The notes below the pieces were generated by a model. It saw only the letters and a list, made by a program, of their open reading frames with translations. It searched no databases and had not been told where the DNA came from. The translations under genes and the position numbers were made by a program. A DNA stretch of 64,000 nucleotides from Parcubacteria group bacterium (GTDB taxonomy: Bacteria; Patescibacteriota; Minisyncoccia; Moranbacterales; UBA2206), in the NCBI GenBank assembly GCA_041675165.1, contig JBAYUI010000001.1:6901-70900 (forward strand), in the 5' to 3' direction. Position 1 is the first letter of the stretch; every line of letters starts with the position of its first letter. Shown in pieces: positions 1,652-48,568 of this stretch.

Positions 1652-1680
1652 ATGATGCGAATCTTATGCAAATACGCGAA

Positions 1681-2331
1681 TTAGAGGTGTTTTATAATTT
1701 CTTTGAAGCGCAGATATTCACTCAGGCGCAGCCCCGTCCATTTGCCGATAGCTACGTTGATGGGCACGGTAATAAGGATGAGCCAGGGCGCGCTGGCAAT
1801 GAGACGGATTAATGTTTCGGAACTGGCGATGAAAAAACCGATGATGGAAATGAACAGCGTTTCAGTGGCCAGCAAGATGGCCACGCGCGTGCCTTTTTCT
1901 ATTTGCACGGCCACAAATTTTTCGACGATAGTGATCATAATGAGAATAGGGAAAATGGACACCGCGGCCAGACCCGTGCGGTGTAGATCGCCGCCTAAGG
2001 TCAAAACGCCCAAAGTTAAAATGGCTACGGCCGTGAGCATAATAGCCACGCGTGGCAGATAGAGCAGGCGAAAAGGTTTCAAAATGAAACGCATCAGCAT
2101 CCCAGTCACAATGACTGAAATGAAAATGGTGATGCCATATTTCAAGCCATTGGTGGCGAGAAATGCGAAGGTCACGATGAGTGGGGTGTAGATGCCAAAG
2201 GCCTTCACGCCCACCACTTGGCGGAGGAGCGCGATGAAAGTGGCGATGATTGGAAGCATTAAAAGTAGAATAACTGTTTCAAAAGGCAAACCTTTTTGGA
2301 TGAAGAAAAGAATGATCGGGCTGATGTGCAT
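1681..2331 (-). CDS. Polytopic (about 7 TM) membrane protein, likely the partner of the RimK-like ligase
   Basis: 216-aa highly hydrophobic ORF, same strand and immediately upstream of the ATP-grasp gene (30-nt gap). Its position matches the conserved 7TM component of RimK-like/transglutaminase/7TM cassettes. No transglutaminase-like domain is present. Confidence 0.5.
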   Translation of the reverse strand: MHISPIILFFIQKGLPFETVILLLMLPIIATFIALLRQVVGVKAFGIYTPLIVTFAFLATNGLKYGITIFISVIVTGMLMRFILKPFRLLYLPRVAIMLTAVAILTLGVLTLGGDLHRTGLAAVSIFPILIMITIVEKFVAVQIEKGTRVAILLATETLFISIIGFFIASSETLIRLIASAPWLILITVPINVAIGKWTGLRLSEYLRFKEIIKHL

Positions 2332-2377: not shown

Positions 2378-2866
2378 TTAGTAATGGAAAATATTCATTT
2401 TGCGACTATTGAGGTGACAGAGGGCAATGGCCAAGGCATCCGCCGTGTCATCCGGCTTGGGCAGGGTGGCAAGCTTCATAATATTTTTGGTCATTTCTTG
2501 GATTTGATTTTTGTCCGCCCGCCCGTAACCCGTCAGTGCCTGCTTGACTTGGAGCGGCGTGTAACCACACACCTTAACACCTTTTTCACGCAATGTCAAG
2601 AGAATCGCGCCTCGCGCTTGAGCCACTTGGATGACGGTTTTTTTGTTCTTGAAGAAAAAAAGTTCTTCAATGGCCGCTTCCTGCGGGGCATATTTATCAA
2701 TGATTTTTTTCAGGTCTTGCGAAATTTCCAAAATCCGCTCATCATCCGATTTCTCTTTCTCCGTGCTGATGTGGCCATAGGCCAGCGGGACAAATTCACA
2801 ATTCTTCTCCGTCACAATCGCCCAACCCGTCGTGGCCGTCCCGGGATCGATGCCGAGCACTTTCAT
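2378..2866 (-). CDS. ruvC: Crossover junction endodeoxyribonuclease RuvC
   Basis: MKVLGIDPGTATTGWAIV... is a classic RuvC N-terminus, with a conserved acidic core. The ORF track extends to 2902; the internal Met at 2866 fits the family better. Confidence 0.85.
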   Translation of the reverse strand: MKVLGIDPGTATTGWAIVTEKNCEFVPLAYGHISTEKEKSDDERILEISQDLKKIIDKYAPQEAAIEELFFFKNKKTVIQVAQARGAILLTLREKGVKVCGYTPLQVKQALTGYGRADKNQIQEMTKNIMKLATLPKPDDTADALAIALCHLNSRKMNIFHY

Positions 2867-2964
2867 GCTGTCATTATTTGGTTGGGTAATATTTTTTTTC
2901 ATGCGGTTCTATATACATTATACTCCGAAAGGATGAGTTTAGATAATTTTTTTCAAATAAGAAA

Positions 2965-3768
2965 TCATTTTTCCCAAGTGGTGGGCAGATCATATTTGCC
3001 TTCCAGGTTTTTCCAAGTCAGCTCCACTATTTCTTTTATAGCTAGGGCAAACTTGGGAGATTCGATGATAAGCGTTTCGACGCTTTCAATGAGGCAAATG
3101 CGCACAAATTGATTGTCGCAAGATTCGATGGAAACTTTGGCGCTATAGATTTCCGGCGGCAAAAATTTGGCTTGGATGGATTTCAGTCCATCACCAAAGA
3201 ATTTTTCAAAGGGTTTCAATTGAGGTGTGTCGACAGTTATGCCGCGAACACGCGTGTTGTGAGCTTCTTTGTATTCATTCCATTCCAGGAATACTTGCGT
3301 GACAGCCGGAGAAGCATCTTCGTTGGAGGTGAAAAATCCAACAATTTCTTTTCCATATAAATCTTTCTGTCTATATTTGTAGGCTTGGCGCAAGCCTTCA
3401 ACGCCTTCGAAATACAGGATACTGGGTTTGTTAGTAGTGTTCTTTTGATAGGAGCGTAACTCGGGCAAGATTTTTTTAGCGGCCGAAAGGCGATCTTCTT
3501 GCTCCTCAATGAACGTATCTGGAGTTTTGGCGATGTATAGCTTCTTTTCTTCTCCTGGGATATGCACGATAAGACCTTTTTTGACCAGTTCCTCGGCGAT
3601 AATATAGGCAGTAGGGCGCTTGATGCCGGATTTGATGGCAATTTGATAGGGAGTGGCAGATCCAAGCTGAAGCAGGGCCAAATAGACCAGAACTTCTTTT
3701 TCGGACAAGCCTAAATTTTTTAGCGGTTCAATGAGATGGTTCATAGGAAGAGGAAAGTGGTTATACAT
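2965..3768 (-). CDS. TrmB-family transcriptional regulator (paralog 1)
   Basis: N-terminal wHTH region LGLSEKEVLVYLALLQLGSATPYQIAIKSGIKRPTAYIIAEELVKKGLI is typical of TrmB-like regulators, with a C-terminal effector-type domain. It is divergent from the small-ORF cassette locus. Confidence 0.65.
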   Translation of the reverse strand: MYNHFPLPMNHLIEPLKNLGLSEKEVLVYLALLQLGSATPYQIAIKSGIKRPTAYIIAEELVKKGLIVHIPGEEKKLYIAKTPDTFIEEQEDRLSAAKKILPELRSYQKNTTNKPSILYFEGVEGLRQAYKYRQKDLYGKEIVGFFTSNEDASPAVTQVFLEWNEYKEAHNTRVRGITVDTPQLKPFEKFFGDGLKSIQAKFLPPEIYSAKVSIESCDNQFVRICLIESVETLIIESPKFALAIKEIVELTWKNLEGKYDLPTTWEK

Positions 3769-6932: not shown

Positions 6933-6975
6933 TTCCTAAAGCCGAGCTTTAGGAAGATTAGCTTTAGGAAGATTA
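6933..6975. repeat. REP-like hairpin TTCCTAAAGC-cga-GCTTTAGGAA with a tandemly duplicated 3' arm (GCTTTAGGAAGATTA x2); also present at 35598-35622
   Basis: Exact 10-bp arms at both sites. Here it sits between convergent genes (the DUF4325-like gene on + and yebC on -). Confidence 0.5.
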
Positions 6976-7689
6976 TAAATTATCGAAAATCTCATCCACA
7001 TCATCCAGTTCGTCCAAAACTTCTAAGAGTTTTTCGTAAGCTTCTTTGGTGGCAGGATCGATTTCGGCGATGGTTTTGGGCAGATAGGACAGATTAGCCT
7101 CGGCGATTTTTTGGCCGGAGGCTTTCAACTTGTCTTGCACCTTTTGCAGCTCGGTCGGCTCGGTGAAGATAATGAATGCGCCTTCTTCGGTTTTCATATC
7201 TTTCGCACCAGCGTCGATGGCGACCATTTCTAGTTCTTCAAGATTGCTGTTTTCGTCAGTTTCGATGATGATGGCGCCGACTGGGTCAAAGTTCCACATG
7301 GATGAGCCGGCCTCGCCGAATTTGCCGCCGTTTTTGGTGAGAACGGTTTTCACTTCGCCGAGCGTGCGGTTTTTCTTGTCGGTGGTGGCTTTCACTAGCA
7401 TCATGACATTGCCTGGGCCTTTGGCTTCATAGATAACTTCTTCCATCTTGTCGCCTTTCAGTTCTCCGCTTCCGCGTTTCACCGCGCGATCAATGTTGGC
7501 CTTGGGCATGTTATAGGAAAGTGCTTTGTCGATGGCCGCGCGCAACTGAAAATTGGTGTCCGGATTGCCGCCGCCAGCTTGCGCCGCAATGACGATCGGT
7601 TTGGCGAGAACAGTGAAAATCTTGGCGCGCTTGGCGTCATTCACGCCCTTTCTTTGCTTGATTCCAGCCCAATGTGAGTGTCCTGACAT
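6973..7689 (-). CDS. yebC: YebC/PmpR-family DNA-binding regulatory protein
   Basis: MSGHSHWAGIKQRKG... is the canonical YebC N-terminus. The track ORF extends to 7767, but the internal Met at 7689 matches the family start. Confidence 0.85.
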   Translation of the reverse strand: MSGHSHWAGIKQRKGVNDAKRAKIFTVLAKPIVIAAQAGGGNPDTNFQLRAAIDKALSYNMPKANIDRAVKRGSGELKGDKMEEVIYEAKGPGNVMMLVKATTDKKNRTLGEVKTVLTKNGGKFGEAGSSMWNFDPVGAIIIETDENSNLEELEMVAIDAGAKDMKTEEGAFIIFTEPTELQKVQDKLKASGQKIAEANLSYLPKTIAEIDPATKEAYEKLLEVLDELDDVDEIFDNL

Positions 7690-7801
7690 AAAAGATATTG
7701 CTAAATGGTTAAATAGACATACTACTAACGGCCTATTCAGTCTAACAGTTAAAAAAGAGAAGTTCAAGGCGGATATGATCAGGCGGAAAGAAGGTTATTT
7801 T

Positions 7802-9871
7802 TCATATCACATTCAAAACCCGATTGATCCCGGAATTTATTTTCAACCAAAAAGTTTCGGCGAAAGTTATGACCCAATGTTTTTGGGGAATAGCAGAAGT
7901 GAAAGTGTAATAATTTCCATCATAAATAACTATTCTGGCACCGAGGACGTGGGGAGTGGCATTGTTTATAGCCGCGGGAATTTCAAGGGCGGAACTGAAA
8001 GTGGCCAGTTCGATCTGATAGTTTTGTTTTTTCTGCCAGGCCGGATCAAGGGAATATTTTCCCAAATCAGCCGCGGAAATTGTAGGTGCTGGTGTGAATA
8101 TGGCTGGTGGTGCGTCTTGCTTATTTTCGGCGGACGCAAGGCTCGCTCCTTCGGCAGTGGCCGGTTCGGACCATTCCCAATTGCTGCCTTCTTTTTTCTG
8201 GTAAAGTGTTTCTTCTTGGATTGACTTCTTCCCGTGGTCATATTGAATTTTTTGCACGGCCTTGCCAGATGGATCGCGCAGCTCAAGCTTGTCCTTGGCA
8301 TTGGTCAGGGTGAAAGCGCAAATGTCATGGCTTAATTTTTTAGTTTTGTCGGCCTTGATGAAGAAATCTTCGCGGATCGGATGGTTCACGAGATTGTCCC
8401 AGCCGGTGGCAACAGACCAGCCTTTCAAATTCATTTTCTTTTTGGAATTGTTTTGGATTTCAATCCATTCATTTTCAGTGTCACTGCCTTTCGGGTTGGG
8501 GGAGATTTTCATGATCCAGATTTTTGGTGCCACATATTTTTTCACCTCGACCGTGAAAGCATAAAGCGCGTCTTCACCGTTGCCGGTGATTTTGAGACTG
8601 GCGGCATAGTGGCCAGTTTTTTCATACTTATGCTTGGTTTTTTGCAGGTAACTTTTATGCCCGTCGCCGAAATCCCAAGTGAATTTTTGGGCATCGCGGC
8701 CGGCTTTGACTTCGAAATGGGCATAAATATTTTTGTACATCTCATCATCTTTTGAAATTTTTCCATGGAGGATCTTGTCGAATAGGTTTTCCTTTCCGGG
8801 TGTAGTGAGTGAAGTCCAGCGCCAAGCGGTGCCGTCGAAAGCGTAGGCATGACCAGATTTGGGTGAGGCATAGGCGCGGCTGTCTACTAGGGCTTTACTC
8901 GCGTCATACAAGAAAACCGTATCGCCTTTGGAATCGTTGTTGAGAGAAAATGTGCCATAGAAAACATCAAGATTGTCATTTTTGTCCAGACTGGAGATTT
9001 TTTTGCAGCTGCCTTTTTCGCCCTTGTCATTTTCTGTCTTATCCTTCAAACACCACTTCGAAAAATCAATCTCTTGTCCGCTGGAATTTTCAATTTCCAC
9101 AAATTCTTTTTCGCCCGCCGCAGTCAGGGGCGCGGGATAAATCTCGTTGATTTTTACCTGATCAACATAGTAAGATTTTTTAGAAGTGTCGCTGTCGGGG
9201 TCATTGTCAGGGTCTGTGTCGCCATCTCCGCTGGCGCAATCTTTTTCATCGGAATTTTTTTGGCCGGGAGTGCCGCCCAAGACGCAGCTTTCATGCCAAC
9301 CATTTTTTTCGAAATCATTCCGTTCGATGCTTTTCTTATCGGCGGGATTTTTGATTGCGTTTTTGTCAAAATATGCATTGGCTCCAAAACCTAAAAAATC
9401 TAGAACGTTTTCTTTTTTGTTTCCTGATGTGCTGATATAGACCGCGCCATCGGCCACGAGAGAATTTCCAACGGTTGAATAAGTTGCGTCAACAGCGGTA
9501 TCGGTGGTGTTATCGGCATAATCCTTGGAAGATATGAGGAAATAGCCTTTGGCAGGAACGGTTTCATGGATAAAGGTCAGGGTTTTGGAACTGTCGGAGT
9601 TGGCAGAATTTACGAGATGCAATTTCAAAGGCAAGGATTTTAGATTGATATCGGCATCGGTTGGATTGTAAATTTCCAGGAACTCTTCCGCGGCGGAGTT
9701 TCCTCTGGGTAAAACTTCAGAAAGTAATAAGTTATTCTGGACATCATCCGCTCGACATTCTTTTTCCCAATAAAAAACTGCCAACAGAAAAATCGGCAGT
9801 AAAACAAGGAGCCTAAAAACAAAAAACAAACCTTTATTTTTGTCCGCCTCTACGGCGGATAAAGTTCTCAC
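7802..9871 (-). CDS. Secreted/anchored protein with three lamin-tail (LTD) domains and a PKD domain
   Basis: N-terminal hydrophobic anchor. LTD-like segments (LLLSEVLPRGNSAAEEFLEIYNP, VKINEIYPAP..EKEFVEIEN, IWIMKISPNPKGSDTENEWIEIQN). PKD-like FTWDFGDGHKS...GHYAASLKITG. Confidence 0.65.
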   Translation of the reverse strand: MRTLSAVEADKNKGLFFVFRLLVLLPIFLLAVFYWEKECRADDVQNNLLLSEVLPRGNSAAEEFLEIYNPTDADINLKSLPLKLHLVNSANSDSSKTLTFIHETVPAKGYFLISSKDYADNTTDTAVDATYSTVGNSLVADGAVYISTSGNKKENVLDFLGFGANAYFDKNAIKNPADKKSIERNDFEKNGWHESCVLGGTPGQKNSDEKDCASGDGDTDPDNDPDSDTSKKSYYVDQVKINEIYPAPLTAAGEKEFVEIENSSGQEIDFSKWCLKDKTENDKGEKGSCKKISSLDKNDNLDVFYGTFSLNNDSKGDTVFLYDASKALVDSRAYASPKSGHAYAFDGTAWRWTSLTTPGKENLFDKILHGKISKDDEMYKNIYAHFEVKAGRDAQKFTWDFGDGHKSYLQKTKHKYEKTGHYAASLKITGNGEDALYAFTVEVKKYVAPKIWIMKISPNPKGSDTENEWIEIQNNSKKKMNLKGWSVATGWDNLVNHPIREDFFIKADKTKKLSHDICAFTLTNAKDKLELRDPSGKAVQKIQYDHGKKSIQEETLYQKKEGSNWEWSEPATAEGASLASAENKQDAPPAIFTPAPTISAADLGKYSLDPAWQKKQNYQIELATFSSALEIPAAINNATPHVLGARIVIYDGNYYTFTSAIPQKHWVITFAETFWLKINSGINRVLNVI

Positions 9872-9923: not shown

Positions 9924-10520
9924 CTATGCCGCGTCACCATCATGGTGGATTTTTTTGCTGAGCATATCTGTAAACTCCACATCCTCGGTGTGTTCAAATT
10001 TCTTCTGCAGCTTCATGATCAGGTCCTTGACGGCATAGGGGTCGGGGATGTTTCTGAAGAGAAATTTTTCCGTTTCAGCGGCCGTCTGCACCTCGATGTT
10101 GCCATAATTGAGAAAGGTCGGAATGACACCTTTGACGTCGGTAGCGACGTCCTGGATCTTTTCCAGACGAAGCTCACTGGTCTGTCTGGCGAAGAGCCCC
10201 TTTTGTTCGATATTGACGATGCGTTGGCTGGTAATGATCCAGACGTCGAAATAATAATCGATCCAGATGATGAAAAAGGTGATCCAGATGAAGATGAAAA
10301 ATAAATTGCGTAAAAAGGCAAAAAGCATCTGGAAAGATGGGTCGCCAAAATTATTGTAAAAAACAGCAGTCAATCCATAGGAGCCGAAAAGCAAGACGAG
10401 CATGATGAGGATGATGAAAAATTGGCTCAGGATGTCGAACCAATGACGGTGCAAGACGAGCAGGATCTGTTCGTCCGAGCGTTGCCCATCAAAATGATAT
10501 TTGTTGAAAGAATTTTCCAT
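9924..10520 (-). CDS. Membrane protein with a bacterial PH (bPH_2, YdbS/YdbT-like) domain
   Basis: From the internal Met: MENSFNKYHFDGQRSDEQILLVLHRHW, then two TM helices, then ...IITSQRIVNIEQKGLFARQTSELRLEKIQDV. The first 82 codons of the track ORF look non-coding. Confidence 0.5.
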   Translation of the reverse strand: MENSFNKYHFDGQRSDEQILLVLHRHWFDILSQFFIILIMLVLLFGSYGLTAVFYNNFGDPSFQMLFAFLRNLFFIFIWITFFIIWIDYYFDVWIITSQRIVNIEQKGLFARQTSELRLEKIQDVATDVKGVIPTFLNYGNIEVQTAAETEKFLFRNIPDPYAVKDLIMKLQKKFEHTEDVEFTDMLSKKIHHDGDAA

Positions 10521-10525
10521 AATGT

Positions 10526-10750
10526 TTAGCCGATGAAAAATTGTGAAAATATAGCAGTCCATTTGACGGAGAAAAATAGCAGCATATTGGAAAAAAGGAG
10601 AAGAGCGGAGATTATGATGAAGAGTGGTAACAAAATCTTGTTCAAGCTGGCATTGATGGAATATTTGGCCAAGTGGTAGACGATAAAGGCGTACAGAAAA
10701 ACAAAGGTAAGGACGATGATGGCATAAAGAGTGAGGATGAGGTAGAACAT
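10526..10750 (-). CDS. Small hydrophobic protein (two TM), hypothetical
   Basis: 74-aa ORF, strongly hydrophobic, in a different frame from the 5' extension of the bPH gene. Confidence 0.25.
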   Translation of the reverse strand: MFYLILTLYAIIVLTFVFLYAFIVYHLAKYSINASLNKILLPLFIIISALLLFSNMLLFFSVKWTAIFSQFFIG

Positions 10751-10817
10751 AACGAGTAAATTTCAAATTCTAAATTACAAATTTCAAATAAATTTTAAAA
10801 TAAAAAATGTCAAATTT

Positions 10818-11825
10818 TTAAAACAAACTTCCTTCTTTTTTGTCGTATGCTATACCCAAATGGTTGTAGGCGGCTTCTGTGGCCATGCGTCCGCGCGGGG
10901 TGCGAGTGAGGAAACCGATCTGGATGAGGTAAGGTTCGTAGACATCCTCAATAGTTTTGATCTCTTCGGAAGTGGCCGCGGCAATCGTGCCGAGACCGAC
11001 TGGTCCGCCGCCGAATTTCTCAATGATAGTGGTGAGAATATGCTTGTCGGCCGGTTCGAGGCCCAGCGGGTCGACGTCGATCATTTCCAACGCTTCAAGG
11101 GCGACTGCTTCATTAATTATATCATGATTTTTTATCTGCGAAAAATCTCGGACACGTTTCAGCAGTCGATTGGCGACGCGTGGCGTGGCGCGCGCGCAAG
11201 TGGAAATTTTTTGGAGGCCCGAGTCATCGATGTTCACATCCAAGATACGTCCCGAGCGTTCCAGAATTTTTTTGATTTCGTCATTGGTGTAAAATTCCAA
11301 GCGATGGATGGCGCCGAAGCGGTTTCGGAGAGGATTGGAAAGAGAGCCAAGCTTGGTGGTCGCACCGATCAGGGTGAAATGTGGCAGATCCAATTGGATG
11401 GTGCGCGCCGAAGGGCCTTTGCCAATGATGATATCCAGTTTATAGTCTTCCATAGCCGGGTACAAAATTTCCTCAATAGATTTATTCAGGCGATGGATTT
11501 CGTCGATAAACAAAATATCTCCGTCCTGCAGGTTGGTGAGGATGGAACCGAAATCACCCACGCGCTCAATGGCCGGGCCGGAAGTGGTTTTGATATTAAC
11601 GTTGAGTTCTTTGGCGATGATGTTGGCCAAGGTGGTTTTGCCGAGACCCGCCGGGCCATACAAAAGCACGTGCTCAATCGCTTCTTTCCTGAATTTGGCC
11701 GCTTGGATCAGAATATCCAGGTTTTTTTTGACTTTTTCTTGGCCGACATATTCGCCGAAAGTTTGCGGACGAAGGGTGATGTCAAAAGAAGCGTCTTCGG
11801 GTTGTTCGATGGAAGTGGTGATCAT
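10818..11825 (-). CDS. ruvB: Holliday junction branch-migration helicase RuvB
   Basis: [16 protein letters not shown]...[18 protein letters not shown] (Walker A) and the conserved RuvB core and C-terminal winged helix. Confidence 0.9.
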
Positions 11826-11960
11826 AATAAGTTAAAAATGCAAAATTAAAAGCTAAAAACTGCAATTATCAGTTCAAAGTTTATTGAAAAATAAAGCTTT
11901 TAATTTTTAATTGCAACTTTACATTTTGCACTTTGAACTTTCAACTAATTATACCCCCTC

Positions 11961-13145: not shown

Positions 13146-16100
13146 CTAGATATCCGTCACTCGTTCCACTTCTTCCAAGCTCGTCTCGCCTTCCAAGACG
13201 CGCAATACACCGTCTTGGGCCATGGTGAGCATGCCGAGGGAGATGGCTTTTTCTTCCAGTTCGCTCGTGATAGCGCCGCGAGTGATGAGATCTTGGATTT
13301 CGCGAGGCAGACAGAAGACTTCGCTGACCGTCATCCGGCCTTTGTAGCCGATATGATTGCAAATTTCACAACCCTTGGGCTTGTAGATGAATTCAATTTT
13401 TTCCGGCAAGTCAACTCCGGCTTTCGGGGATATGCTTTTCAATGCTTGCTCCAGTTTAATTTTTTCTTCTGCAGTCGGTGTCACTTTTTCTTTGCAATCG
13501 CACAGGCGTCGCACTAGTCGTTGCGCGATGAAAGCGTTGACGGAAGTGGCGATGTCTGAAGAGGCAACACCCATATTTTCCATTCTGGCCACGGCTCCCG
13601 CGGCATTATTAGTGTGGATGGTGGACAAGACCAAATGTCCCGTCAGTGCGGCTTGCACCGCCACTTTGGCCGTTTCATCATCGCGGATTTCCCCGATCAT
13701 CATAATGTCCGGATTTTGACGCAGCAGTTGGCGAAGGGCTGTGGCGAAAGTGTAGCCGCCCGTGTCATTGACGGGAGTTTGCAGGATGCCGGGGATCTGA
13801 TATTCGATCGGATCTTCCACGGTGATAATCTTGATCTCCGGCTTGTTCAATCTTTCCAAGATGCTGTAGAGCGTGGTGGTTTTGCCGCTGCCGGTCGGGC
13901 CGGTGTTCAAAATGACACCATTGGGCTTTTCAATTTCGCGCAGGATCTTTTCCAGATTCTGGCGGCGGATGCCGAGTTTTTCCAGATCATACTCCAAAGA
14001 AGATTTGAAAAGGAGTCGCATCACGACAGTTTCTCCATAGCCTCCGAGGATGATGGAAACACGCACATCGATCGACTTTTCCGCAATTTCAGAAATAGCA
14101 TCGTCGAATTTTATGGTGAAGCGGCTGTCGATCACGCCTTGGCGGACTTCGGTCTTGACGCCGGAAAGATCTTTGATCATTCCGAGGAGCGCCGGGTATT
14201 CATTAAGAGGCAATGAAACGACATTTTGCAATATGCCGTCGATGCGGAACCTGATCTTGACGCTATCCGCTTCCGGTTCGATATGGATATCTCCGACGCC
14301 CAGCATTGCGGCGGCTGAGACAATGAGACCGTTCAATTCGGTCGTCTTGGCCGACCTTAAGATCTCTTCCAATTTCTTGAAGTCCCTGATGTCATCTTTT
14401 ATCTTTTGGAAGGAATTTTTCCTGATGATGATCATCCGGCCCAGAGTTTGCGCCATCAATTTTTCATAAATATTTTCCAAAAATTCTCCTTGTCCCGTAA
14501 CATGCTTCACTTCATCAATGGAAGTTATGCCCGCTACGGCTTTCAAAATGCCGTCTTGCAGCATCGTAATCATCCCTGACTCAAGGGAGGCCACTGCCAA
14601 TTCTGTTTCGCCGGCCATATCCAATATCAATTTTTCAATCTCGTCGTGGATGGTGAGGACTTCAAAAATACCGATGCGCCCCTTATAGCCGATGCCGTTG
14701 CATTTAGCACAGCCTTTCGGTCGATAGAGAACGTCTATTTTTTTCGGAATATCCACTTTGGCTTTGGGAGAAATTATGGACAAGACTTTTTTGATCGATT
14801 CGATCGATTCTTCTGCGGGAACGTAGGCCTCTTTGCACTCGCAAAGTTTGCGCACTAAGCGCTGTCCGATAATGGCATTGACGGAGGGGGAGATCAAAGT
14901 TGGCTTTATGCCGAGCTCGATCAGTCGCGGAACGGCTCCCATTGCGTTATTAGTGTGAAGAGAAGAAAGCACCAGATGTCCTGTAAGAGCTGAATTTACG
15001 GCGATATCGGCCGTTTCATCATCACGGATCTCTCCCACCAAAATGATGTCCGGATCTTGACGCACAATGGCTCTGAGTCCATTGGCGAAAGTGTAACCTT
15101 TGGATTTTTCTATCTGTGTCTGGGAAATTCCTATAAGTTCATATTCGATCGGATCTTCGATGGTGATGATCTTTTTATTGGGCGTGTTCAATTTGTTTAT
15201 GATGGCATAGAGCGTGGTGGTTTTTCCGCTGCCTGTCGGACCGGTGTTTAAAATCATGCCATTAGGAGAATCTATCTGTTTTTGAACGGTCTCGTAAGCC
15301 AATCCTTGCAAGCCAAGATCCTCAACGTTTACGCAAATGGAGTCCGGATCCAATAGTCTCATAACGATCGATTCCCCGAAATTTCCAGGAATGACAGAAA
15401 CCCGCAAATTGATCTTTTTTGTCGCTAGATTGATTTCAAACGTGCCATCTTGGGCAATGGCCCGTAGGTTGATCTTCATTCCTGACATAATTTTTATCCG
15501 AGAGAGGATGCCGGTGAAAACTTTGAGCGGCAGAAAAGCAACATCTTGCAATACGCCATCAATACGATAACGCAAGCGGATCTCTTTGTCCTGCGGCTCG
15601 ATGTGGACGTCTGAAGCGCCGAGCTTGTAGGCACCGGCCAGCATAATATCGAGAATTTTTGTAACGGGCAGTTCGGTGATGCGGTTCTTGAGGGTCAAAA
15701 GGTCCTTCATCTCCTTTTCGAATTCTCGCAGGTCTTCATCGCTCATATTCAGGCTCATCTTATCCAAAGCATCCACGAAAACGACCTGTTTGTATTTATC
15801 CCAGATACGTTTCATATTGGTCTTTGAAATCACAAAGAGCTTGATCTTCCAGCCTTGATCATTTTCCAATTTTTTCAAAAATTCACCCATGTCCGCGCGC
15901 GTCGGATCGGTGGCGGCGATGGTCGCCACTTTGCCCTTGTAGTGGATGAGCGCGATGCCCAATTTCCGAGAGTCGTCTTCGCTCAGGAGCCTGACATCAT
16001 CCTTGCTTATCGGAATGAGATTGGTGTCAGCATAAGGCAAGCCCAGTCCGGAGGCGTAGGCTGAGGCGATCTCTTCTTCTTCTCTTTCTCGGAAAGCAGT

Positions 16101-16175
16101 GATAACTTTTTTCGTCCGAGTTTCTTTCTTAAGCTGTTCTCTGTCCGGATTCTTATTCGGAATAACTTTAAGCAT
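13146..16175 (-). CDS. Tandem-fused double PilB/GspE-family secretion ATPase (type IV pilus/T2SS assembly ATPase, two complete ATPase modules in one 1009-aa chain)
   Basis: Two full copies of the catalytic core in one ORF. Walker A GPTGSGKTTTLY appears twice; Asp box IIT(V/I)EDPIEY twice; His box LTGHLVLS(T/S)(I/L)HTNNA twice. A tetracysteine motif follows each module, and there is an N-terminal T2SSE_N-like domain. Confidence 0.8.
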   Translation of the reverse strand: MLKVIPNKNPDREQLKKETRTKKVITAFREREEEEIASAYASGLGLPYADTNLIPISKDDVRLLSEDDSRKLGIALIHYKGKVATIAATDPTRADMGEFLKKLENDQGWKIKLFVISKTNMKRIWDKYKQVVFVDALDKMSLNMSDEDLREFEKEMKDLLTLKNRITELPVTKILDIMLAGAYKLGASDVHIEPQDKEIRLRYRIDGVLQDVAFLPLKVFTGILSRIKIMSGMKINLRAIAQDGTFEINLATKKINLRVSVIPGNFGESIVMRLLDPDSICVNVEDLGLQGLAYETVQKQIDSPNGMILNTGPTGSGKTTTLYAIINKLNTPNKKIITIEDPIEYELIGISQTQIEKSKGYTFANGLRAIVRQDPDIILVGEIRDDETADIAVNSALTGHLVLSSLHTNNAMGAVPRLIELGIKPTLISPSVNAIIGQRLVRKLCECKEAYVPAEESIESIKKVLSIISPKAKVDIPKKIDVLYRPKGCAKCNGIGYKGRIGIFEVLTIHDEIEKLILDMAGETELAVASLESGMITMLQDGILKAVAGITSIDEVKHVTGQGEFLENIYEKLMAQTLGRMIIIRKNSFQKIKDDIRDFKKLEEILRSAKTTELNGLIVSAAAMLGVGDIHIEPEADSVKIRFRIDGILQNVVSLPLNEYPALLGMIKDLSGVKTEVRQGVIDSRFTIKFDDAISEIAEKSIDVRVSIILGGYGETVVMRLLFKSSLEYDLEKLGIRRQNLEKILREIEKPNGVILNTGPTGSGKTTTLYSILERLNKPEIKIITVEDPIEYQIPGILQTPVNDTGGYTFATALRQLLRQNPDIMMIGEIRDDETAKVAVQAALTGHLVLSTIHTNNAAGAVARMENMGVASSDIATSVNAFIAQRLVRRLCDCKEKVTPTAEEKIKLEQALKSISPKAGVDLPEKIEFIYKPKGCEICNHIGYKGRMTVSEVFCLPREIQDLITRGAITSELEEKAISLGMLTMAQDGVLRVLEGETSLEEVERVTDI

Positions 16176-16282
16176 ATTTTTATTTTAAAAATTTATAGGA
16201 AAGGATGAAATTATAATTATATTTTATCACAGAAAGAGGGAATAAAAAAATAAAAATGAAACGGTGGATATTGGCATTTCAC

Positions 16283-16317
16283 AAAAAAACAAGGTTCTTG
16301 CAGAACCTTGTTTTTTT
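16283..16317 (-). terminator. Terminator hairpin downstream of the nrnA-like gene
   Basis: AAAAAAACAAGGTTCT-tgc-AGAACCTTGTTTTTTT. Confidence 0.5.
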
Positions 16318-16331: not shown

Positions 16332-17489
16332 TTAGTTTTTCTGTTCCGGAAAAATATCTTCCGCTAGGATGTTCTTTATCTTTTCCATCATCTTCAGGCC
16401 CACTTCGGCCGTGTCAGAGGAATCGATCCTGACCTGCAGGAAGTTGCGGATGATGTCGCCGTCGATCTGGAGACTTATCTTCTGGATGTTTTTCGTGTCG
16501 ACAGTCTTTATCAGGGCTACGGAAGTCTGGGGTGTATCATTGTAGACAAGCATAAAAATGCGTCCCTCGCCGTAATTCTCTTCCAATTTATCCAAAATGA
16601 GCGGCAGGTCACTGGGCGTGGCGCGGCTTTGCACAAAATCCTCTACGGTCAGTTCGGACCATACGATGTGAGCTTCTTTTTCCAGATTGATTTTGGCCAT
16701 CGCTCGGCCCCATAGCTTCAGGATCTGAAGCGGTTGAGTCTTATATAGCCAACGGATGATGGTTTGTTGATCGGCGCCACGGTTCATAAGAGCTGCAGCC
16801 AAGGAGAGAGCCTTCGGAGTGGTATTTTTTTTCTGGAAGCTTTCAGTCGCGCCGATAAGGCCGGTCATAAGGCAGGTGGCTATAGTTTCATCTATGAGAC
16901 TGTCATAGTAGGTTTCAAAAAAACTGGCGCATATTTCAGAAGAAGATGAAGCGGTGATGTCGACCAGATTGATCTGCCCGAAGTTATCATTGCCGCTGTG
17001 GTGGTCTATATTGACGACGGGCACTTCGAAGAACAAGTCGGTGTTGCCGGTATAAATTTTACCCAAGGTTTCCAAGTCGGAACTGTCGATGACGATGACT
17101 AGGTCATATTTGAATTTGGCGAGGATGAAAGAAAAGTCGCGCGGGTCGATGGCGCCTTTTTCGGGCGTGACCATAATATTGAAGCGGCCATCTTTTTCTT
17201 CTTGGCGGATCTGCATAATTTTGTTGCGGGTCGTGTCGAAAGACAGGACGAAATCGCGCGCGCCGGAAATTTCAGCCAATATTTTCGCGGGGCGCGGCAG
17301 AAAGTCGAATTTGGCTGACAGATGGTTGGAGAAAGCGATGGTCGGATTGATATGCTTATTCTCCAGAAAATAGTACAGTGCCCAAGCCGATCCGACGGCA
17401 TCAGCGCTGGGATTTTCCGGAATAAGGATAAGTATGTCCTTGGAGTTTTCCAGGAATTTCTTGAATTGTTCTTGTGAGGAAAGAGACAT
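16332..17489 (-). CDS. nrnA: DHH-family phosphoesterase, NrnA-like (oligoribonuclease/pAp phosphatase)
   Basis: DHH motif region VVNIDHHSGNDNFG, N-terminal DHH and C-terminal DHHA1-like halves (GGGH-like region ...TGLIGATESF...). Confidence 0.65.
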   Translation of the reverse strand: MSLSSQEQFKKFLENSKDILILIPENPSADAVGSAWALYYFLENKHINPTIAFSNHLSAKFDFLPRPAKILAEISGARDFVLSFDTTRNKIMQIRQEEKDGRFNIMVTPEKGAIDPRDFSFILAKFKYDLVIVIDSSDLETLGKIYTGNTDLFFEVPVVNIDHHSGNDNFGQINLVDITASSSSEICASFFETYYDSLIDETIATCLMTGLIGATESFQKKNTTPKALSLAAALMNRGADQQTIIRWLYKTQPLQILKLWGRAMAKINLEKEAHIVWSELTVEDFVQSRATPSDLPLILDKLEENYGEGRIFMLVYNDTPQTSVALIKTVDTKNIQKISLQIDGDIIRNFLQVRIDSSDTAEVGLKMMEKIKNILAEDIFPEQKN

Positions 17490-20677: not shown

Positions 20678-23600
20678 TTGGTATCTCTTTTCATTTTTAG
20701 AATGCTGCAAAACAAAAAAACAAAAAATAAGGAAAAAGAGGTTGAAAAACCGCTTAAAAAATCAATAAAAAAAGCTCTCATTGGAAAAAAGGGGTATTTT
20801 GCTGTCCAAAGAAGAAGGGGAGTGAAAAAAAATGATATTGCTAAAGCTAAAATAATTGAAAAAATAGAAGAATACGACCCTGAAATACTGAAAACGGTCA
20901 AATCTTGGAATTTTTCGGAAAAAAGAAAGGACGAGTTTTTCATAAGACAGACCCTTGAAGAATATGTTTCACTTGACCATACGGACAAGAAAGACTTGGG
21001 GAAAGCTTATTTTTGGAATTTATTCTTAGGAAAATTTGTTTTATCAATAAAACAAATTTTCAGACAAGTTTTTAAAGCGGGATTTAAGTTTTCTTATAGG
21101 GCAATATCCGTTTTGGCTATTGCTTTTTTGGTGTATGGAATTTCGCCGGCGGCTCTTTGCGCTCCCAAATCGGTCGCAATAACTACAAAGGCTGATTGGG
21201 ATCTGGGTCAGTTTTCCGGAGTGACTACACAGAATTCTGTCGATTCGATCCAGATGGAACCAAGTGGGACTTGGACAGCTCGAACTTGGGCATCACCAGA
21301 GGACACCATAGGCTTCGGGCATAGTTCTGTAATGGTGGGCGATTATCTCTATGTTTTCCGAGGTTATTCCGGAGATACTTTTTGGAGATATGATACTATC
21401 AAAAATACTTGGTCAACAATGGCGGGACTGCCACAACCGGCATTCTATGGGGCAGATATGACATATTTGGCCAGTACGGGAAAGATATATGCAATGTTCG
21501 GAGGCTATTCTCAAAAATTTTATAGCTATGATATAGATTCAAATTCTTGGACAAAACTGACTGATATGTTAGATACGCCATGGACAGGCGCGGCGATGGA
21601 AGGGAACGGAACGAGCATTTTTATTGTCAGGGGAAATGCCAGTACTGATTTTTGGGAATATGACACTGTTTCCAGTAGCTGGATAAATCGACCACCGATT
21701 ACGGCGGCTGTCGGAGCCGGGGCGGATATTGTGAATGGACAGGATGGAAATTTATATCTGGTCAGGGGATCTGGAACTCAAACTTTCTATCGGTATGATA
21801 TCGCTGGTCACAGATGGTACGCGACCGTGGCTCAACTCCCTTCGACTTGTGGCGCGGCGGCAAATGCAGCTTGCACTTTTGGAAACGAACAAAAAGGAGT
21901 CTATCGGAATGGAAAATTGTACTTTATGCGTTCTAATGGTACGCAAGATATGTTGCAATATGACATTTCTGGAAATGCTTGGACGGCTCTAACGACAGAT
22001 ATGACTCCTCAAGCGGTCAATTATGGTTCTTTGACTCTGAATACAAATGATAATTTAATATATGCCTTCAGAGCTAATGGCACGACTGATTTTTGGAAAT
22101 TCGATCCCGATGCGGCATCCGGACAAAAGTGGGTCGGACCAAAACAGGTGCAAACAACCGCAGGCGTCCTTTCTACTGTAGGCACAGGCAGTGATTTGGT
22201 TTGGAATCAGAATTATGGCGGAAATAACTACGTGTACGCTATCCAAGGCAGGGGAACGACGGGATTTTTTGTGTATAATGTAGCGAATAATTCTTGGACG
22301 ACCGGTACGGTACTTCCCATCTCTCCGAATAGTGATATGAAAGGAGCGATCAACCCGGCTAATGGAGCGCTTTATTATCCGCGTTCTGGATCGGCTAATA
22401 TCCTCATTTACAGCGGAGGCACTGCCGGTACTTGGGCCAATATGTCGCCGGCACCACCCATAGCACCGGCCGATGGAGCCAGTGTTGCTTTTCAAGGCAC
22501 CAATCTATATTATCGGCCCGGCAATGGAAGTCAGAATATTTATCGATACAATGGCACAAGTTGGTCAGCGGCAATCCCTATGGCAACTGTAGATAGCGGA
22601 ACGACCACGACTTATTATGCCAATACGGGAGGCAGAATGATTTCGGATGGAACTAATGTTTATGCAACACTGGGAGATGGTGAAACAACATTTTTGAAAT
22701 ATGACGGAAGTGCTTGGTTAACATTGTCCGCCACGCCATTCTCGCAATATTATGGGAGTGATATGACGTATGACAGCGTTAATTCAAAAATATATGCCTT
22801 AGCCGGATTATATAAGAATGAGACTTGGGAATATGACATAGCCACTGATGTTTGGAGAAGGTTGCCGAATAACCAGAAATATACTTTTGATAGGGGACCG
22901 TACAATGGTGCTTCGATCGAATATTCCGGCAATACCTCTTTATACGCAACTACAGGCCAAAGCCTTTCTGATATATGGAGTTATACCGTCTCAGCTACAA
23001 ATTTTCCAACTTCCGGAACTTACACTTATGCCAGTCAAATGATCGACCTCGGGCAAGTTTCCAGTGGTTCGGCATTCACTTTCAATGAGGAAAGGCCGGC
23101 CAATACTTCTACGAAGTACGAGCTGTGTACAAATGCGGACGGTGCGGCCTGTTCTTCTTGGCACAATGTAACGGACGGCGTGATCAGCGACCTAACCATT
23201 GGCAGGTATGTCTGGGTGAAAGTCACCTTATCTACGAGTGATGGGGCCAGCACTCCAACAGTGAATGATTATACCATTTCTTATGCTTCAAGCGATACCG
23301 TTCCTTCTTCGCCTACGACAATAGTGGCTAAATCTCAGCAAGTGGACGGGTCAGATATCGTAGCTGACACGGAATACGCATATGAGCACCCCTATTTTTC
23401 TTGGACAGCCGGAGCGGATAATGGCTCAGGAATAGATGGTTATTATGTCTATTGGGGAAAAAACAGCTCCGCGGATCCGGCAAGTGAAGGAAGTTACCAG
23501 GCAACTGGCCACTATACGGTCAACGAGGCGATGAATTATGATACTAGTCCGGTGCATCCCTACGGCACATATTATTTAATCGTGAAGGCTAAAGATAAGA

Positions 23601-26600
23601 ACGGGTTGGTATCAGACGCTTGGTCAGCTTTTACTTACAAATACAAAGGTGTTTCTCCGTCACAAGTATCGAGTAAAACATTACAAAGCGATTTCAATAA
23701 AGCGGGAGCCGACTTTGATGACGGGAAAATATCATACTCGGCTGTTGATGGATCAATGCGCCTGTCAAACACTTCCGGTTTTTGGAATCAGGCTCGATTA
23801 TCAGCTTCACCCTATTATACGCATATAGGGGGTCAGGCAGTGTTGGGGGGATGTAAGACGACTGGGCAATCCCAATTAAGTGGCAATCATTGCGTTTATA
23901 CATTTCAAGGAAACAATCAATTGGTTTTTATGCGGTATGAGATTGAAACGGATACATGGATAAATTCAACCGCTAATATAGCCGAGATAAAACCAGCCTT
24001 GTCAGCGGTTAATAATGGAGGAACGATGGTGGCTGGTCCGGAGGGTTATCTCTATGCGACCAAGGGTGTCACCACGCCAACTTTTTGGCGCTATGACATT
24101 GCTAACGCGGCATGGACACAAATTGATGATGCACCGAAAAATTTCGATTATGGTTCTGTCTTGACGTATGATGACAGTCGATATATCTATGCTATGCCAG
24201 GAAATGACGATGCGACATATCGATATGACACTTGTAACGGTCAAGATGGAAGTTGCAGTCCGCAATGGACCCAACTAACCAATGCCCAATTCGGGAACCC
24301 CAATACGGTTGACGGACAAAAGACCTACGAAGGAGCGGATGGTATTTATGACGGACGGAACAATATGTATGTGATGCAAGGCAACTATTATCCGTATATG
24401 GCTAAATATTCCATTGCTGACGACGAAGGGCGTGGAGAAGTGCATAATACTTGGACATCTCTTTCGGCCGCGCCCGTCGGTTTCTATAACGGAGGCAGTT
24501 TGTCTTTCGACGGGGATCATACAATCTATGCTTTAGCGGGAAATTCTCGTATGAAGTTTATGAAATATGACACCAACACCGACGCATGGTCATTCCTTCC
24601 GGACGCGCCTGCCACAATTTCATATGGAGCTTCTCTCGTTTTTCATAACGGCTATCTCTATGCCACTCGAGGGGGAACTTATACGACGTTCTATCGTTAT
24701 AATACGATTGATAACACGTGGGAGATTCCCAATCATAATTTTTTCGGCAATACGGATGTGACAGGGGCAGTTTATCTCCCTTATTCCAATGGAGCTTCAA
24801 TGGCGGATGACGGAGGCGGAAATATATATATATATAGAGGCGGATTCGATAATACTTTTGGACGATATAATTCTTCGACCGGTGTTTTTACCACCCTATC
24901 CAAGTTACCGATGGGTGCCGGCAACGGAGCGAATATTGTATATAATGGAACGGAGAATGCTATCTACTATGTTTCCGGCAATACCATAAGAACAAGACGG
25001 ACCGGGACGGATACGCAGAACCCATACTTTTTCAAATATGATATAACCAGTAATACTTGGTCACAAATAACCACCGATCGTCCTTTGGCTCAAATATGGC
25101 TGGGATCGTCAATGACCTATGACGGGTCTCAATATATCTATCTGACCCAGGGCAATGGTACATCCACTTGGTGGAAATATGATACGTTGGGGGCTGCCGG
25201 TTCAAGGTGGAGCGCTATGAGTACGGTGGGGAGTTGTTCGAGCGGTGACGGAAGTAAGATTTTGTATGTAAGTGGAACGATTTTCCGGACGCAAGGCGCA
25301 GGATCGACTACGAATTGTAAATTTTCTATTTCTAATGGAACGTGGTCAACATTGGGAGCCCTTTTCTTTGGTGCTAACTCCGGATCAAGTCTGGTAGATG
25401 GCAAGGACGGTTATATTTATTTGGCTCGCGGCGGCAATACTAATAGTTATTATCGTTATAACATTTCCCAAAGCGCTCCGGGGTCATGGGAAAATCTGAC
25501 CGGAGCCAATATTCCGGCTCAAGTGACTACGGGCGGTTGGGGAGTAAATTCTAACAATAGGAACTGGTTTACGTCCGGCGCGGGCGGAGGAATAACTTTT
25601 CCGGACGGATTGTATAGCTATATCGTCGGATCTAGTACGAATGCGACGGGTTTTATTAAGACCGGTACATATACTTCAGAACCGATTGATCTTACTCAGG
25701 CTTATAAATTTGCCAACTTGAGCGTCAGCTATATCTTGCCGATCAACACTGCGCTTGAAATCCAAACCAGAACTTCATCCAACGGGTCGACTTGGGGAGA
25801 TTGGACGGATGTTTCAGAAGATCATTCTTTGGGCGATTCTCATACTTTTTCCATAAATTCTTCCGTAAATGAATATATTCAGATAAGGATGATTTTCAGC
25901 TCTTCCGATCAAGTCTATTCTCCGCGCGTAGATGATTTTGCCATAAACTATTATCAAGATCTTTTCCCGCCTGACAATCCTACTGGTATTTCTGCTTACG
26001 ATACCAGTGTCAAAACCAATATTCTTTCTGACAATACTTGGCATAACTACACAGCTCCGTATTTCGAATGGCCGGTCGCTAACAGCGCGGGCGGAGCGGT
26101 TGACAATCAGGGCGGATCGGGCATCGCGGGCTATTATGTCTGTTTCGGGAATAATACTGATTGCGTGGATCCTTATGTGGACGGTAGTTTCCAGATGGGC
26201 AATAGTTTTGTCCCTACCGGTATGGTTTCCGGACAGGATTATCATTTGAGAATAAAGGCCGTGGATAATGCCGGTATGTTTTTGGGTACGAGTTTTGATG
26301 CCTTCACGTATCGATTCGATGATGTGGCTCCGACTAATCCCAGTGAGATTACAGCCGATCCGATAGGTTATTCTTCAGCAGACGCGTTTATTTTCACGTG
26401 GTCTAATGATGTCGGTGATGCTAATTCCGGCGTAGCCAAATTCCAATATCGCACAGGCGGAGATGCGGCAGACATATGGTATGATATTTCTGACCCATAT
26501 GCCGTATCGCAATCCGTCGCGCCATATCAGGCTAACAAGAACACTTTCTATTTGCGCGCGGTGGACAATGCCGGCAATGTTTCCGCTCCGATGACGATGG

Positions 26601-28462: not shown

Positions 28463-29295
28463 ATCAAATAGACGAGAAGGAGAAAAGAATATTAAAGATG
28501 AATGAAGCTCCCAGTCAGAGTGCTAAAGGAAAAAAAACTTCCGAGTTTTTTCCTGAGTTTGAACATCATTCTCAAAAAGATATTGTAGTCGGTGTCAAGG
28601 ACATTGAGAAAACTTTTGTCTTGGGCACTAATAAGGTGGATATTTTGAAAGGGGTCAACTTCGAAATAAAAAGAGGGGAATTTGTGATGCTAATGGGTCC
28701 TTCCGGTTGCGGAAAATCGACTTTGCTCCACATCGTTTATGGATTGGAAGCTCCGACCAATGGGACGATCTTTGTTGAAGATGAAGATATCTGGGCGCAC
28801 AGCAAGAATTGGCGAGCTTATTTCCGCAATCAATACATCGGTTTTATCCCGCAACAAGCCTTTTGGATAAAGTCGCTTTCAGTCATTGAAAATGTGGCGG
28901 TGCCGGGATTCATCGGCGGTCGGGGTTATCGCGAATCCATCGAAAGAGCGTATAAGACCTTGGAAATTGTCGGAATGAAAGACTGGGCACATTATCGGCC
29001 GTTTGACTTGTCCGGAGGACAGCAGCAGAAAGTAGCTTTTGCCCGTTCACTCCTTCTTAATCCTAAATTCATCATCGCGGATGAACCGACGGGGAACCTT
29101 GACCAGAAATCCGGCGTACAGCTGATGGACCTCATTAAAGAGTTCAACGAATCATTGAATATCACTGTCCTTATGGTGACGCATAATCCTGATCAGATCA
29201 GTTATGCATCGAGAATAGTCAGGATGGTGGACGGAAAAATATTATCAGACACGACTGATAAAGAACAAATTAATATAATCAAAAATGAAGCTTAA
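28447..29295 (+). CDS. ABC transporter ATP-binding protein (MacB/LolD/FtsE-like)
   Basis: Walker A GPSGCGKSTLL, signature LSGGQQQKVAFARSL, Walker B IIADEPTGNLD. The start overlaps the giant gene by 16 nt. Confidence 0.85.
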   Translation: MDKTIDQIDEKEKRILKMNEAPSQSAKGKKTSEFFPEFEHHSQKDIVVGVKDIEKTFVLGTNKVDILKGVNFEIKRGEFVMLMGPSGCGKSTLLHIVYGLEAPTNGTIFVEDEDIWAHSKNWRAYFRNQYIGFIPQQAFWIKSLSVIENVAVPGFIGGRGYRESIERAYKTLEIVGMKDWAHYRPFDLSGGQQQKVAFARSLLLNPKFIIADEPTGNLDQKSGVQLMDLIKEFNESLNITVLMVTHNPDQISYASRIVRMVDGKILSDTTDKEQINIIKNEA

Positions 29296-47534: not shown

Positions 47535-47559
47535 ACGACCGTGGTGGTCGTGTTTTTTT
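47535..47559. terminator. Bidirectional terminator hairpin ACGACC-gtggt-GGTCGT + T7
   Basis: Lies between convergent genes (the hypothetical membrane gene on + and TrmB2 on -). Confidence 0.5.
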
Positions 47560-48346: not shown

Positions 48347-48568
48347 AAGGTTATATGTTTTGTCATTCCTGCGCAGGCAGGAATCTAGTCGCAAATTATT
48401 AAGTTTCTACATTGGATCCCCGCATGCGCAAGGATGACAGGGAAGATATTAACTCCATCTTAGCACCTTTTCCGTATATTGTCAACAAAATTATTCATCA
48501 AAATATAATAAAATAATGCTTAAAATAAAGGATAATAATATAATATACCAATGATTTGACTATAATTA

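Follow-up and report, generated by a model that had tools for sequence, protein, structure and literature searches.

What kind of motor is built from a secretion ATPase whose gene encodes the catalytic unit twice? The question is raised by a locus in a Parcubacteria group bacterium (Patescibacteriota; Minisyncoccia; Moranbacterales; assembly GCA_041675165.1), of which a stretch of 64,000 nucleotides, the window, was analysed (contig JBAYUI010000001.1, positions 6,901 to 70,900). On its minus strand, an open reading frame (ORF) at 13146–16175 runs from an ATG start through 1009 amino acids to a stop codon; this single ORF had been recognized by the original prediction, which left its strand unstated. 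An identical protein in the public databases, P0001, is annotated as 'GspE/PulE family protein [Parcubacteria group bacterium]'. ATPases of the PilB/GspE type normally act as homohexamers of single-module subunits; here, two modules follow each other in one chain. We consider it moderately probable, taking the reading as a whole, that the protein is a selected double motor, the Moranbacteria ortholog of an orphan PilB, and that three chains would make up a pseudo-hexamer driving a PilC-type platform.

The chain consists of a putative N1 domain followed by two units, each composed of an N2D domain and a C-terminal domain (CTD), with a linker in between: N1-[N2D-CTD]-linker-[N2D-CTD]. The second module (M2) starts at the linker preceding its N2D and has no N1 domain of its own. 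The prediction of two complete modules thus holds for the two N2D-CTD units, which are both full, but the chain is not a fusion of two whole proteins, as M2 lacks N1. When the halves are aligned with each other, as had been proposed, M2 is 47% identical to the first module (M1) over 429 residues, with an E-value of 6e-140, far beyond chance.

The Walker A, Asp box, His box and tetracysteine motifs, all predicted to occur twice, were located in both modules. Walker A reads GPTGSGKT (residues 312 and 759), the Walker B sequence is GEIRD (381 and 828), the His box is TGHLVLS (399 and 846) and the Asp box reads I(T/V)EDPIEY in either module. The cysteines are arranged as CxC...CxxC in each module (positions in Table 1), the first pair being one residue shorter than the usual CxxC; each tetracysteine subdomain forms a predicted zinc site.

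The N-terminal region is matched only once, and weakly, by PF05157 (MshEN/GSPII N-domain; residues 44–128, 20.3 bits, under the cutoff of 23.1). In the AlphaFold2 model, residues 12–138 fold into an alpha/beta domain, with a per-residue confidence (pLDDT) of 64–86. This N1 domain, present in one copy per two modules, is also the least conserved part of the protein, with a mean identity of 46% across the family. The junction between the modules (residues 561–610) reads through in frame without an intervening stop, as predicted, but not at 14650–14700, where it had been placed: those positions correspond to residues ~492–509, inside the zinc motif of M1. The junction starts with a linker helix (residues 563–577) of conserved sequence G-x-G-E-F-L-E-x-I-Y-E-K-L-M and contains a hinge modelled with low confidence (573–579). 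After the hinge, the model has a strand and two helices, mirroring residues 142–170 ahead of the N2D of M1. The idea that the linker helix is a relic of the last N1 helix was not supported by hhalign.

The family assignment is straightforward. Pfam T2SSE (PF00437) matches the ORF in two stretches with 746.7 bits (cutoff 24.9), the best stretch being residues 170–557. The NCBIfam equivalogs for GspE (TIGR02533, 896.5 bits, cutoff 630) and PilB (TIGR02538, 862.2 bits, cutoff 676) are both above their cutoffs, with totals that sum the two modules, and the TfpB model reaches 716.7 bits, under its cutoff of 850. The proposed comparison with PilB, PilT and GspE references gave matches to PilB/GspE entries of the Protein Data Bank (PDB) at E-values of 1e-107 to 1e-92, the lowest for PilB, versus 1e-31 for PilT. 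No tandem chain is present among 20 PDB sequence matches at E ≤ 1e-20. In Foldseek searches, a single module superimposes on 5tsh (Geobacter PilB), 5oiu and 5it5 (Thermus PilF) with target-normalised TM-scores of 0.87–0.91 and root-mean-square deviations of 3.0–3.6 Å; a module also matches Vibrio GspE in the same range of TM-scores. A retraction ATPase of the PilT/PilU type, which would be short (~350 amino acids) and devoid of the zinc subdomain, was rejected, given the tetracysteine motif in both modules and PDB matches that favour PilB/GspE. In phylogenetic analysis, both modules of the double nest inside the PilB clade of the Candidate Phyla Radiation (CPR).

The double is widespread among relatives. 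A further 118 clusters, of 1004–1055 amino acids, match the window protein end to end at 66–93% identity; in all, there are more than 120 full-length clusters at 53–100% identity, 119 of them doubles at 66–100%. The clusters come from assemblies of NCBI, JGI, ENA and Logan, many of them under the name Moranbacteria or Moraniibacteriota. An exhaustive search of 50%-identity representatives added 13 CPR double clusters (40–52% identity) and one non-CPR double (38%), the named clusters among the doubles at this level being Parcubacteria/Paceibacterota. In both modules, 19 motif positions (the RxRxD residues, Gly, Lys and Thr of Walker A, Glu, Asp and Glu of the Asp box, Gly and Glu plus Arg and Asp of Walker B, two His and four Cys) are kept in at least 118 of the 119 close homologs, bearing out the prediction that the catalytic residues are intact in both halves. 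The four cysteines of each module are invariant across the 119. The entropy of the CTD core is nearly equal between modules (0.44 versus 0.49), and at 110 aligned positions the two share one and the same conserved residue. This conservation indicates that both modules are under purifying selection. With more than 120 clusters, derived from independent samples, sharing this architecture and both halves subject to such selection, the protein must be regarded, from its sequence, as a genuine and selectively maintained single-chain tandem duplication; the assembly error that had been envisaged as the main threat to it is refuted.

Fusion appears to have occurred more than once. In the main family, the linker is recognizable by G-x-x-[YF]-[ILV]-E-x-[ILM]-Y even where identity falls to ~40%, which argues for one old fusion event. 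Two other doubles are different. In P0130 (L088:8001–10985), M1 and M2 are 55% identical in the module core and form an exact head-to-tail repeat (residues 120–554 and 555–994); in P0132 (L087:3226–6213), the core is 73% identical, and the whole repeat as aligned by BLAST 67%. In each of these proteins, M1 and M2 are sisters at 100% bootstrap, the linker is shorter and unrelated and the M2 signature is missing, while both genes adjoin that of RuvB. From their sequences, P0130 and P0132 look independent, making at least two fusions beyond the main family. In a sample of GTDB genomes, the Moraniibacteriota locus was the only fused double among the matches listed; candidate doubles outside the CPR, long Planctomycetes and Omnitrophota spans among these matches, were rejected as adjacent genes or N-terminal extensions. 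Three 'single' sequences that fall within the M1 and M2 clades (P0157, P0165 and P0209) are on contigs of 1.9–3.5 kb, which makes truncation of a double the probable explanation, for P0157 and P0209 at least.

A three-module protein, P0003 (L001:10001–14383), has 1460 amino acids, three complete modules and three intact Walker A motifs. Its locus has the same neighbours as that of the double (genes for RuvB, a bPH-domain protein, an LTD/PKD protein, TsaE and a DHH-family protein), but with the RuvB-bPH-LTD/PKD genes upstream of the ATPase rather than downstream. The linker and N2D of the middle module are M2-like, with 50–78% identity to the third module versus 8–38% to the first, whereas after the His box the middle module is M1-like, with up to 85% identity to the first. 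This is the pattern expected of a recombinant, which would have originated by unequal crossing-over between M2 and M1 of a double. Recurrent fusion of one gene, in at least three events and with a triple in addition, suggests selection rather than accident.

Outside the CPR, the protein P0136 (L091:8001–11144 and L092:3275–6418, two independent assemblies) combines a pair of PilC/GspF cytoplasmic repeats with a pair of T2SSE modules in one chain. Its module 1 reads GPTGSGTTT at Walker A, having lost the lysine; module 2 is intact. The gene is located directly after a sigma/anti-sigma pair of the extracytoplasmic function (ECF) type and its nearest single-module relatives are deltaproteobacterial.

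The gene for the double occupies a fixed position, hereafter the slot, in the order PolA ← (PPIase) ← TsaE / DHH → double → RuvB → bPH → LTD/PKD → YebC → RuvC, where PPIase is a peptidyl-prolyl isomerase. PolA, Fpg and RuvA are encoded further along the window. The synteny of the slot was examined across more than 20 loci; its order is found again in the surroundings of homologs, on contigs as long as 683 kb, and in those of the distant double P0125. The DHH gene is syntenic in L001, L002, L004, L006, L007, L011, L086 and L089, and accompanies the ATPase in many lineages, though not in all. Several related genomes likewise encode the LTD/PKD protein in this position, after RuvB and bPH. Because a hairpin with a T-run follows the DHH gene, a promoter-like element precedes the ATPase gene and a terminator-like hairpin follows it, the ATPase gene looks monocistronic, suggesting it is transcribed on its own; the promoter-like element has no −35 sequence and was not listed by the promoter scan.

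The same slot may be occupied by an ATPase with a single module. The nearest single-module relative, P0135 (565 amino acids, L086), is encoded in the arrangement DHH → PilB → RuvB. Together with those of L007, L009, L011, L025, L029 and L059, it resembles the window protein in clade, slot and sequence (41–50% identity to M1, including N1) but has ~550–566 amino acids and one module rather than two. In GTDB records, slot-resident single-module PilBs are found under the titles Paceibacterota, Giovannonibacteria, Doudnabacteria, Minisyncoccia, Nealsonbacteria, Wildermuthbacteria, Staskawiczbacteria and 'Saccharibacteria'. The 'Saccharibacteria' titles ('uncultured Candidatus Saccharibacteria' for L010, L015, L021, L022 and L031, metagenome-assembled genomes in third-party-annotation records) are doubtful; for the ATPase of L015, the closest homologs that carry a name belong to Zambryskibacteria/Parcubacteria.

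A neighbour-joining (NJ) tree was calculated for 134 modules: 41 from doubles and triples, 19 slot-resident singles, three nearest representatives, 15 other CPR PilBs and 56 non-CPR sequences. The first three groups form a 'Ruv-locus' clade of 63 with a bootstrap value of 99.5%, which leaves out the 15 other CPR PilBs and the 56 non-CPR sequences. All three of the excluded CPR PilBs that were examined are directly followed by PilC (T2SSF) (L080:9920–12927, L046:9857–15588 and L041:9857–12753), and the L046 locus also has a pilin-like N_methyl gene. The tree and the gene neighbourhoods thus indicate that CPR bacteria carry two classes of PilB, one linked to PilC and the other, the Ruv-locus class, an orphan; the double of the window belongs to the latter. 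In the open-access literature, an account of the Ruv-locus orphan PilBs as a distinct class was not found, nor was a published description of a tandem, fused or duplicated PilB, GspE or T2SSE protein, although a negative from open-access literature is weak evidence. The orphan paralog class, the recurrent fusion in its gene and the recombinant triple are what the present analysis adds to the original prediction.

In a study of TM7x, PilB1 and PilB2 are each encoded in a locus with pilC/M/N/O. For Southlakia epibionticum, a transposon sequencing (Tn-seq) table lists three GspE-like genes (PMC10633639, Table S1). One of these, the orphan GspE/PulE gene SEML1_0527 (540 amino acids), was scored GD/ES/ES; another, SEML1_0758, heads a PilC-PilM...RecX-RecA locus (0758–0768) that abuts a bPH/PH-domain gene and ruvB (PMC10633639). 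Both SEML1_0527 and the SEML1_0758 locus may connect to the Ruv-locus class.

How would such a protein assemble? An in-frame head-to-tail duplication of the N2D-CTD unit would have produced the double, and unequal crossing-over within a double the three-module version. Three double chains, or two triple chains, would then make up one pseudo-hexameric ring. A ring of doubles would alternate M1 and M2, with competent ATP sites at all six modules but no more than three N1 domains, so that any partner binding N1 would meet it in a different ratio. Acting on a PilC-type platform that would be encoded elsewhere in the genome, the ring would assemble a type IV filament, either a pilus or a DNA-uptake pseudopilus. 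The trimer-of-dimers motor of the original prediction is thus plausible. By analogy, a three-chain ring is the likeliest assembly, because PilB-family motors work as six-module rings; the module numbers observed, two and three, both divide six. In rings of PilB, PilT and GspE, each N2D packs onto the CTD of a neighbour and both faces of the ring are used. PDB entries of the PilB/PilT family contain hexamers in the C3 state 'ocococ' (PilT4) and the C2 state 'ccocco' (PilB).

Several points weigh against this proposal. No PilC, PilM, PilT or pilin genes were found in the 64-kb window or in the syntenic loci examined, so the role in filament assembly is inferred from family membership only. The predicted link to the type IV pilus machinery is therefore weakened: the gene is alone in its transcription layout, the pilC, pilM and pilin genes that were to be sought nearby are missing from the window and from every syntenic locus examined, and the protein belongs to an orphan paralog class. 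The structure models do not favour any arrangement of the modules. The full-length AlphaFold2 model, calculated from a family alignment of 57 sequences, has a mean pLDDT of 78 and a predicted TM-score (pTM) of 0.44, with confident domains but not a confident mutual placement; the model of CTD1-linker-N2D2 alone (16 sequences) has a pLDDT of 61 and a pTM of 0.40. These pTM values support neither a planar nor a stacked arrangement. The phylogeny is distance-based (NJ) only, with the main-family M2 modules monophyletic at a bootstrap of only 54% and the M1 modules mixed with singles, and gene conversion could mimic independent duplications in P0130 and P0132. Finally, the argument from divisors of six rests on P0003, which is known from one JGI contig only.

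It is possible, although we think it unlikely, that the orphan Ruv-locus class, be it with one module or two, has no part in a pilus and works instead in DNA uptake or processing, as a ComGA-like competence motor, or in another CPR-specific translocation. Such a role, to which either ring geometry would be suited, would be reflected by the location of the slot amid RuvA/B/C, PolA, Fpg and the DHH phosphoesterase. The slot is kept across many CPR lineages without adjacent pilus genes while a separate PilB class sits beside PilC, and the NCBIfam ComGA model scores 466 bits (cutoff 300) when summed over the two modules. In S. epibionticum, the GspE-PilC-PilM locus with RecA/RecX abuts bPH-RuvB and the orphan GspE-like gene has the scores mentioned above, but this counts only in so far as these genes are orthologs of the Ruv-locus class. 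In reduced CPR genomes, however, gene order can persist without functional linkage, and the window gene has promoter-like and terminator signals of its own. PilC and pilins are required by competence pili as well, and the contrast with the filament motor is therefore not sharp.

With regard to geometry, six chains might instead stack an M1 ring and a coaxial M2 ring, giving 12 modules, with one ring on the platform and the other regulating it or adding power. Natural tandem P-loop ring ATPases usually stack, all motifs are kept in both modules, as a two-ring machine needs, and the junction of ~50 residues with its hinge is long enough for either geometry; planar packing is not favoured by AlphaFold2. 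A stacked arrangement would nevertheless be without precedent in the PilB/PilT/GspE family, given the packing of each N2D on a neighbouring CTD and the use of both ring faces. It would also call for three stacked rings in the case of the three-module ortholog, and each chain has only one N1 domain. We regard stacking as rather unlikely.

The two modules are not identical, and the functional divergence of the halves that was predicted may exist but is modest. Eighteen fixed positions differ between them, for example Asp374/Asn821, Pro263/Leu710 and Glu420/Asn867, the first being beside Walker B. M2 evolves slightly faster: in 92% of the homologs, M1 is the more conserved in identity, and the entropy of the zinc subdomain is 0.99 versus 0.61, M2 being the more variable. 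In distant doubles, the first N2D arginine of M2 is gone in four representatives and the M2 zinc site in one. These differences, together with the dead Walker A in one module of P0136, might point to M2 as a regulatory pseudo-ATPase comparable to F1 alpha, in which three working M1 sites would alternate with three non-catalytic M2 sites. We find this improbable, as every M2 motif residue (Lys and Thr of Walker A, the Asp box, the Walker B Glu, both His, RxR and the four Cys) is conserved in the window protein and its 118 relatives. The Walker A Lys, Asp box, Walker B Glu and His box persist in either module of even the most divergent doubles, and the degenerate module of P0136 is module 1, not module 2.

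That two adjacent genes were joined by a sequencing or assembly error, or that M2 is translated separately from an internal start within the linker, is next to impossible: a Shine-Dalgarno-like AAGGAG does occur in the linker, 6 nt upstream of an in-frame TTG (Leu566), but the nucleotide sequence of L001 lacks it and L004 has TTA, a non-start, at the codon equivalent to the start, leaving an internal start unsupported, while the linker is conserved at the protein level, M2 has no N1 domain of its own and the uninterrupted architecture spans independent projects and assemblers.

A bolder version of the ring proposal combines non-equivalent sites with a different role. The ring would be hard-wired, its rotary cycle running on alternating sites that are never equivalent, C3-like in the double and C2-like in the triple, and the orphan class would serve some task peculiar to the CPR rather than the type IV pili encoded in operons. 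Taking up DNA to supply recombination and the salvage of nucleotides would be one such task. The recurrent fusion would then amount to selection for fixed stoichiometry and asymmetry in ultra-small cells. We regard this combination as doubtful. The split of the PilB-like ATPases of the CPR into two classes matters in any case for counts of 'type IV pilus' genes in episymbiotic bacteria.

Table 1. Features of the double ATPase gene and its surroundings (window coordinates; residue numbers refer to the 1009-residue protein).
Feature	Coordinates	Strand	Basis
Whole ORF, PilB/GspE-type ATPase, 1009 aa plus stop	13146..16175	-	Pfam, NCBIfam, motif reading
N1 domain, GSPII/MshEN-like, residues ~12-138	15762..16142	-	PF05157 below cutoff; AlphaFold2; conservation
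Module 1 N2D, residues ~171-296, RxRxDG (R202, R204, D206)	15288..15665	-	Alignment, AlphaFold2, conservation
Module 1 CTD, residues ~297-560	14496..15287	-	Motifs; Foldseek (single module, which one not identified)
Module 1 Walker A, residues 312-319	15219-15242	-	Motif
Module 1 CTD motifs: Asp box 336-345, Walker B 374-385, His box 398-409, Cys 445/447/489/492			
Inter-module junction, residues 561-610	14346..14495	-	In frame, without stop; linker conservation, AlphaFold2
Module 2 N2D, residues ~611-743, RxRxDG (R642, R644, D646)	13947..14345	-	Alignment, AlphaFold2, conservation
Module 2 CTD, residues ~744-1009	13149..13946	-	Motifs, conservation
Module 2 Walker A, residues 759-766	13878-13901	-	Motif
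Module 2 CTD motifs: Asp box 783-792, Walker B 821-832 (N821, not D), His box 845-856, Cys 892/894/936/939			
Promoter-like TGTGATAAAATATAAT/TATAAT (TG-extended -10), ~35-55 nt before ATG	16210..16231	-	Read by eye, inference
Hairpin and T-run right after DHH stop	16283..16315	-	Read by eye, inference
Strong bidirectional terminator-like hairpin, 13-14 bp stem, 48 nt past stop codon	13067..13098	.	
DHH-family phosphoesterase, 385 aa, upstream neighbour	16332..17489	-	Weak NrnA similarity, 38.5 bits vs 350 cutoff
RuvB, downstream neighbour	10818..11825	-	
bPH-domain protein, downstream of RuvB	9924-10766	-	
LTD/PKD surface protein, 689 aa, three Lamin-tail and one PKD domain	7802-9871	-	
YebC, downstream of LTD/PKD gene	6973-7767		
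RuvC, downstream of LTD/PKD gene	2378-2902		

Other genes of the window were noticed in passing. A 2594-residue ORF (20678–28462, plus strand) contains Kelch/beta-propeller, fibronectin-III and purple-acid-phosphatase-N-like Ig domains and is probably a surface protein; it is followed by a pair encoding a MacB-type ABC ATPase and an FtsX-like permease (28447–30613). At 218–2331 (minus strand), an ATP-grasp of the sugar-transfer type is fused to a Zn-protease-like domain. This gene adjoins one for a seven-transmembrane protein of the 'inactive transglutaminase-associated' type, and in L002, L004 and L089 the pair likewise closes the syntenic block. Three paralogous TrmB-like regulators of ~266–278 amino acids are encoded at 2965–3768 (minus), 36313–37113 (plus) and 47558–48394 (minus). 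A 329-residue ORF antisense to ruvB (10860–11849, plus strand) has no family match and is almost certainly a spurious shadow ORF.

Of the systems with which the double can be compared, the solved PilB, GspE and PilF proteins are among the nearest (Geobacter PilB, 5TSG/5TSH/6OLJ; Thermus PilF, 5IT5/5OIU; Vibrio EpsE/GspE, 1P9R/4KSR/4PHT). They share with it the N2D and CTD, all the motifs, the tetracysteine and, probably, an N-terminus of the N1/GSPII type. They are, however, single-module subunits of homohexamers, whereas the window protein has two modules and one N1, a CxC instead of a CxxC as its first cysteine pair and a gene that is not beside pilC, pilM or pilins. Two diverged extension ATPases of the PilB type serve one filament system in Acinetobacter baylyi, where PilB and TfpB cooperate as extension motors (PMC8213720); the word 'heterohexamer' is absent from the text of that paper. 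The A. baylyi motors are separate proteins from separate genes, unlike the modules described here, which are covalently linked in a fixed 1:1 order.

Among other P-loop ATPases, KaiC, ClpB/Hsp104, p97 and EccC of the type VII secretion system have two or three modules per chain through internal duplication, arranged in separate coaxial rings. They have several modules per chain in common with the window protein but belong to different ATPase clades. Alternating heterohexamers are found in F1 (alpha3beta3), Pex1/Pex6 and Rpt1-6, and covalently linked subunits of ClpX have been engineered. How the sites are coordinated in PilB and GspE, in two-fold or three-fold cycles, is still argued from structures of homohexamers, in which it takes engineering to mutate one subunit and not the others. 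In a covalent dimer and a covalent trimer that occur naturally, at one locus, the order of the subunits would be fixed and ring positions could be mutated singly, as has been done artificially in ClpX. Sliding clamps, although not ATPases and alike by analogy only, provide the closest parallel: PCNA has two domains in each of three chains and the bacterial beta clamp three domains in each of two, so that a ring of six modules is made as three times two or two times three, as it would be by the double and the triple.

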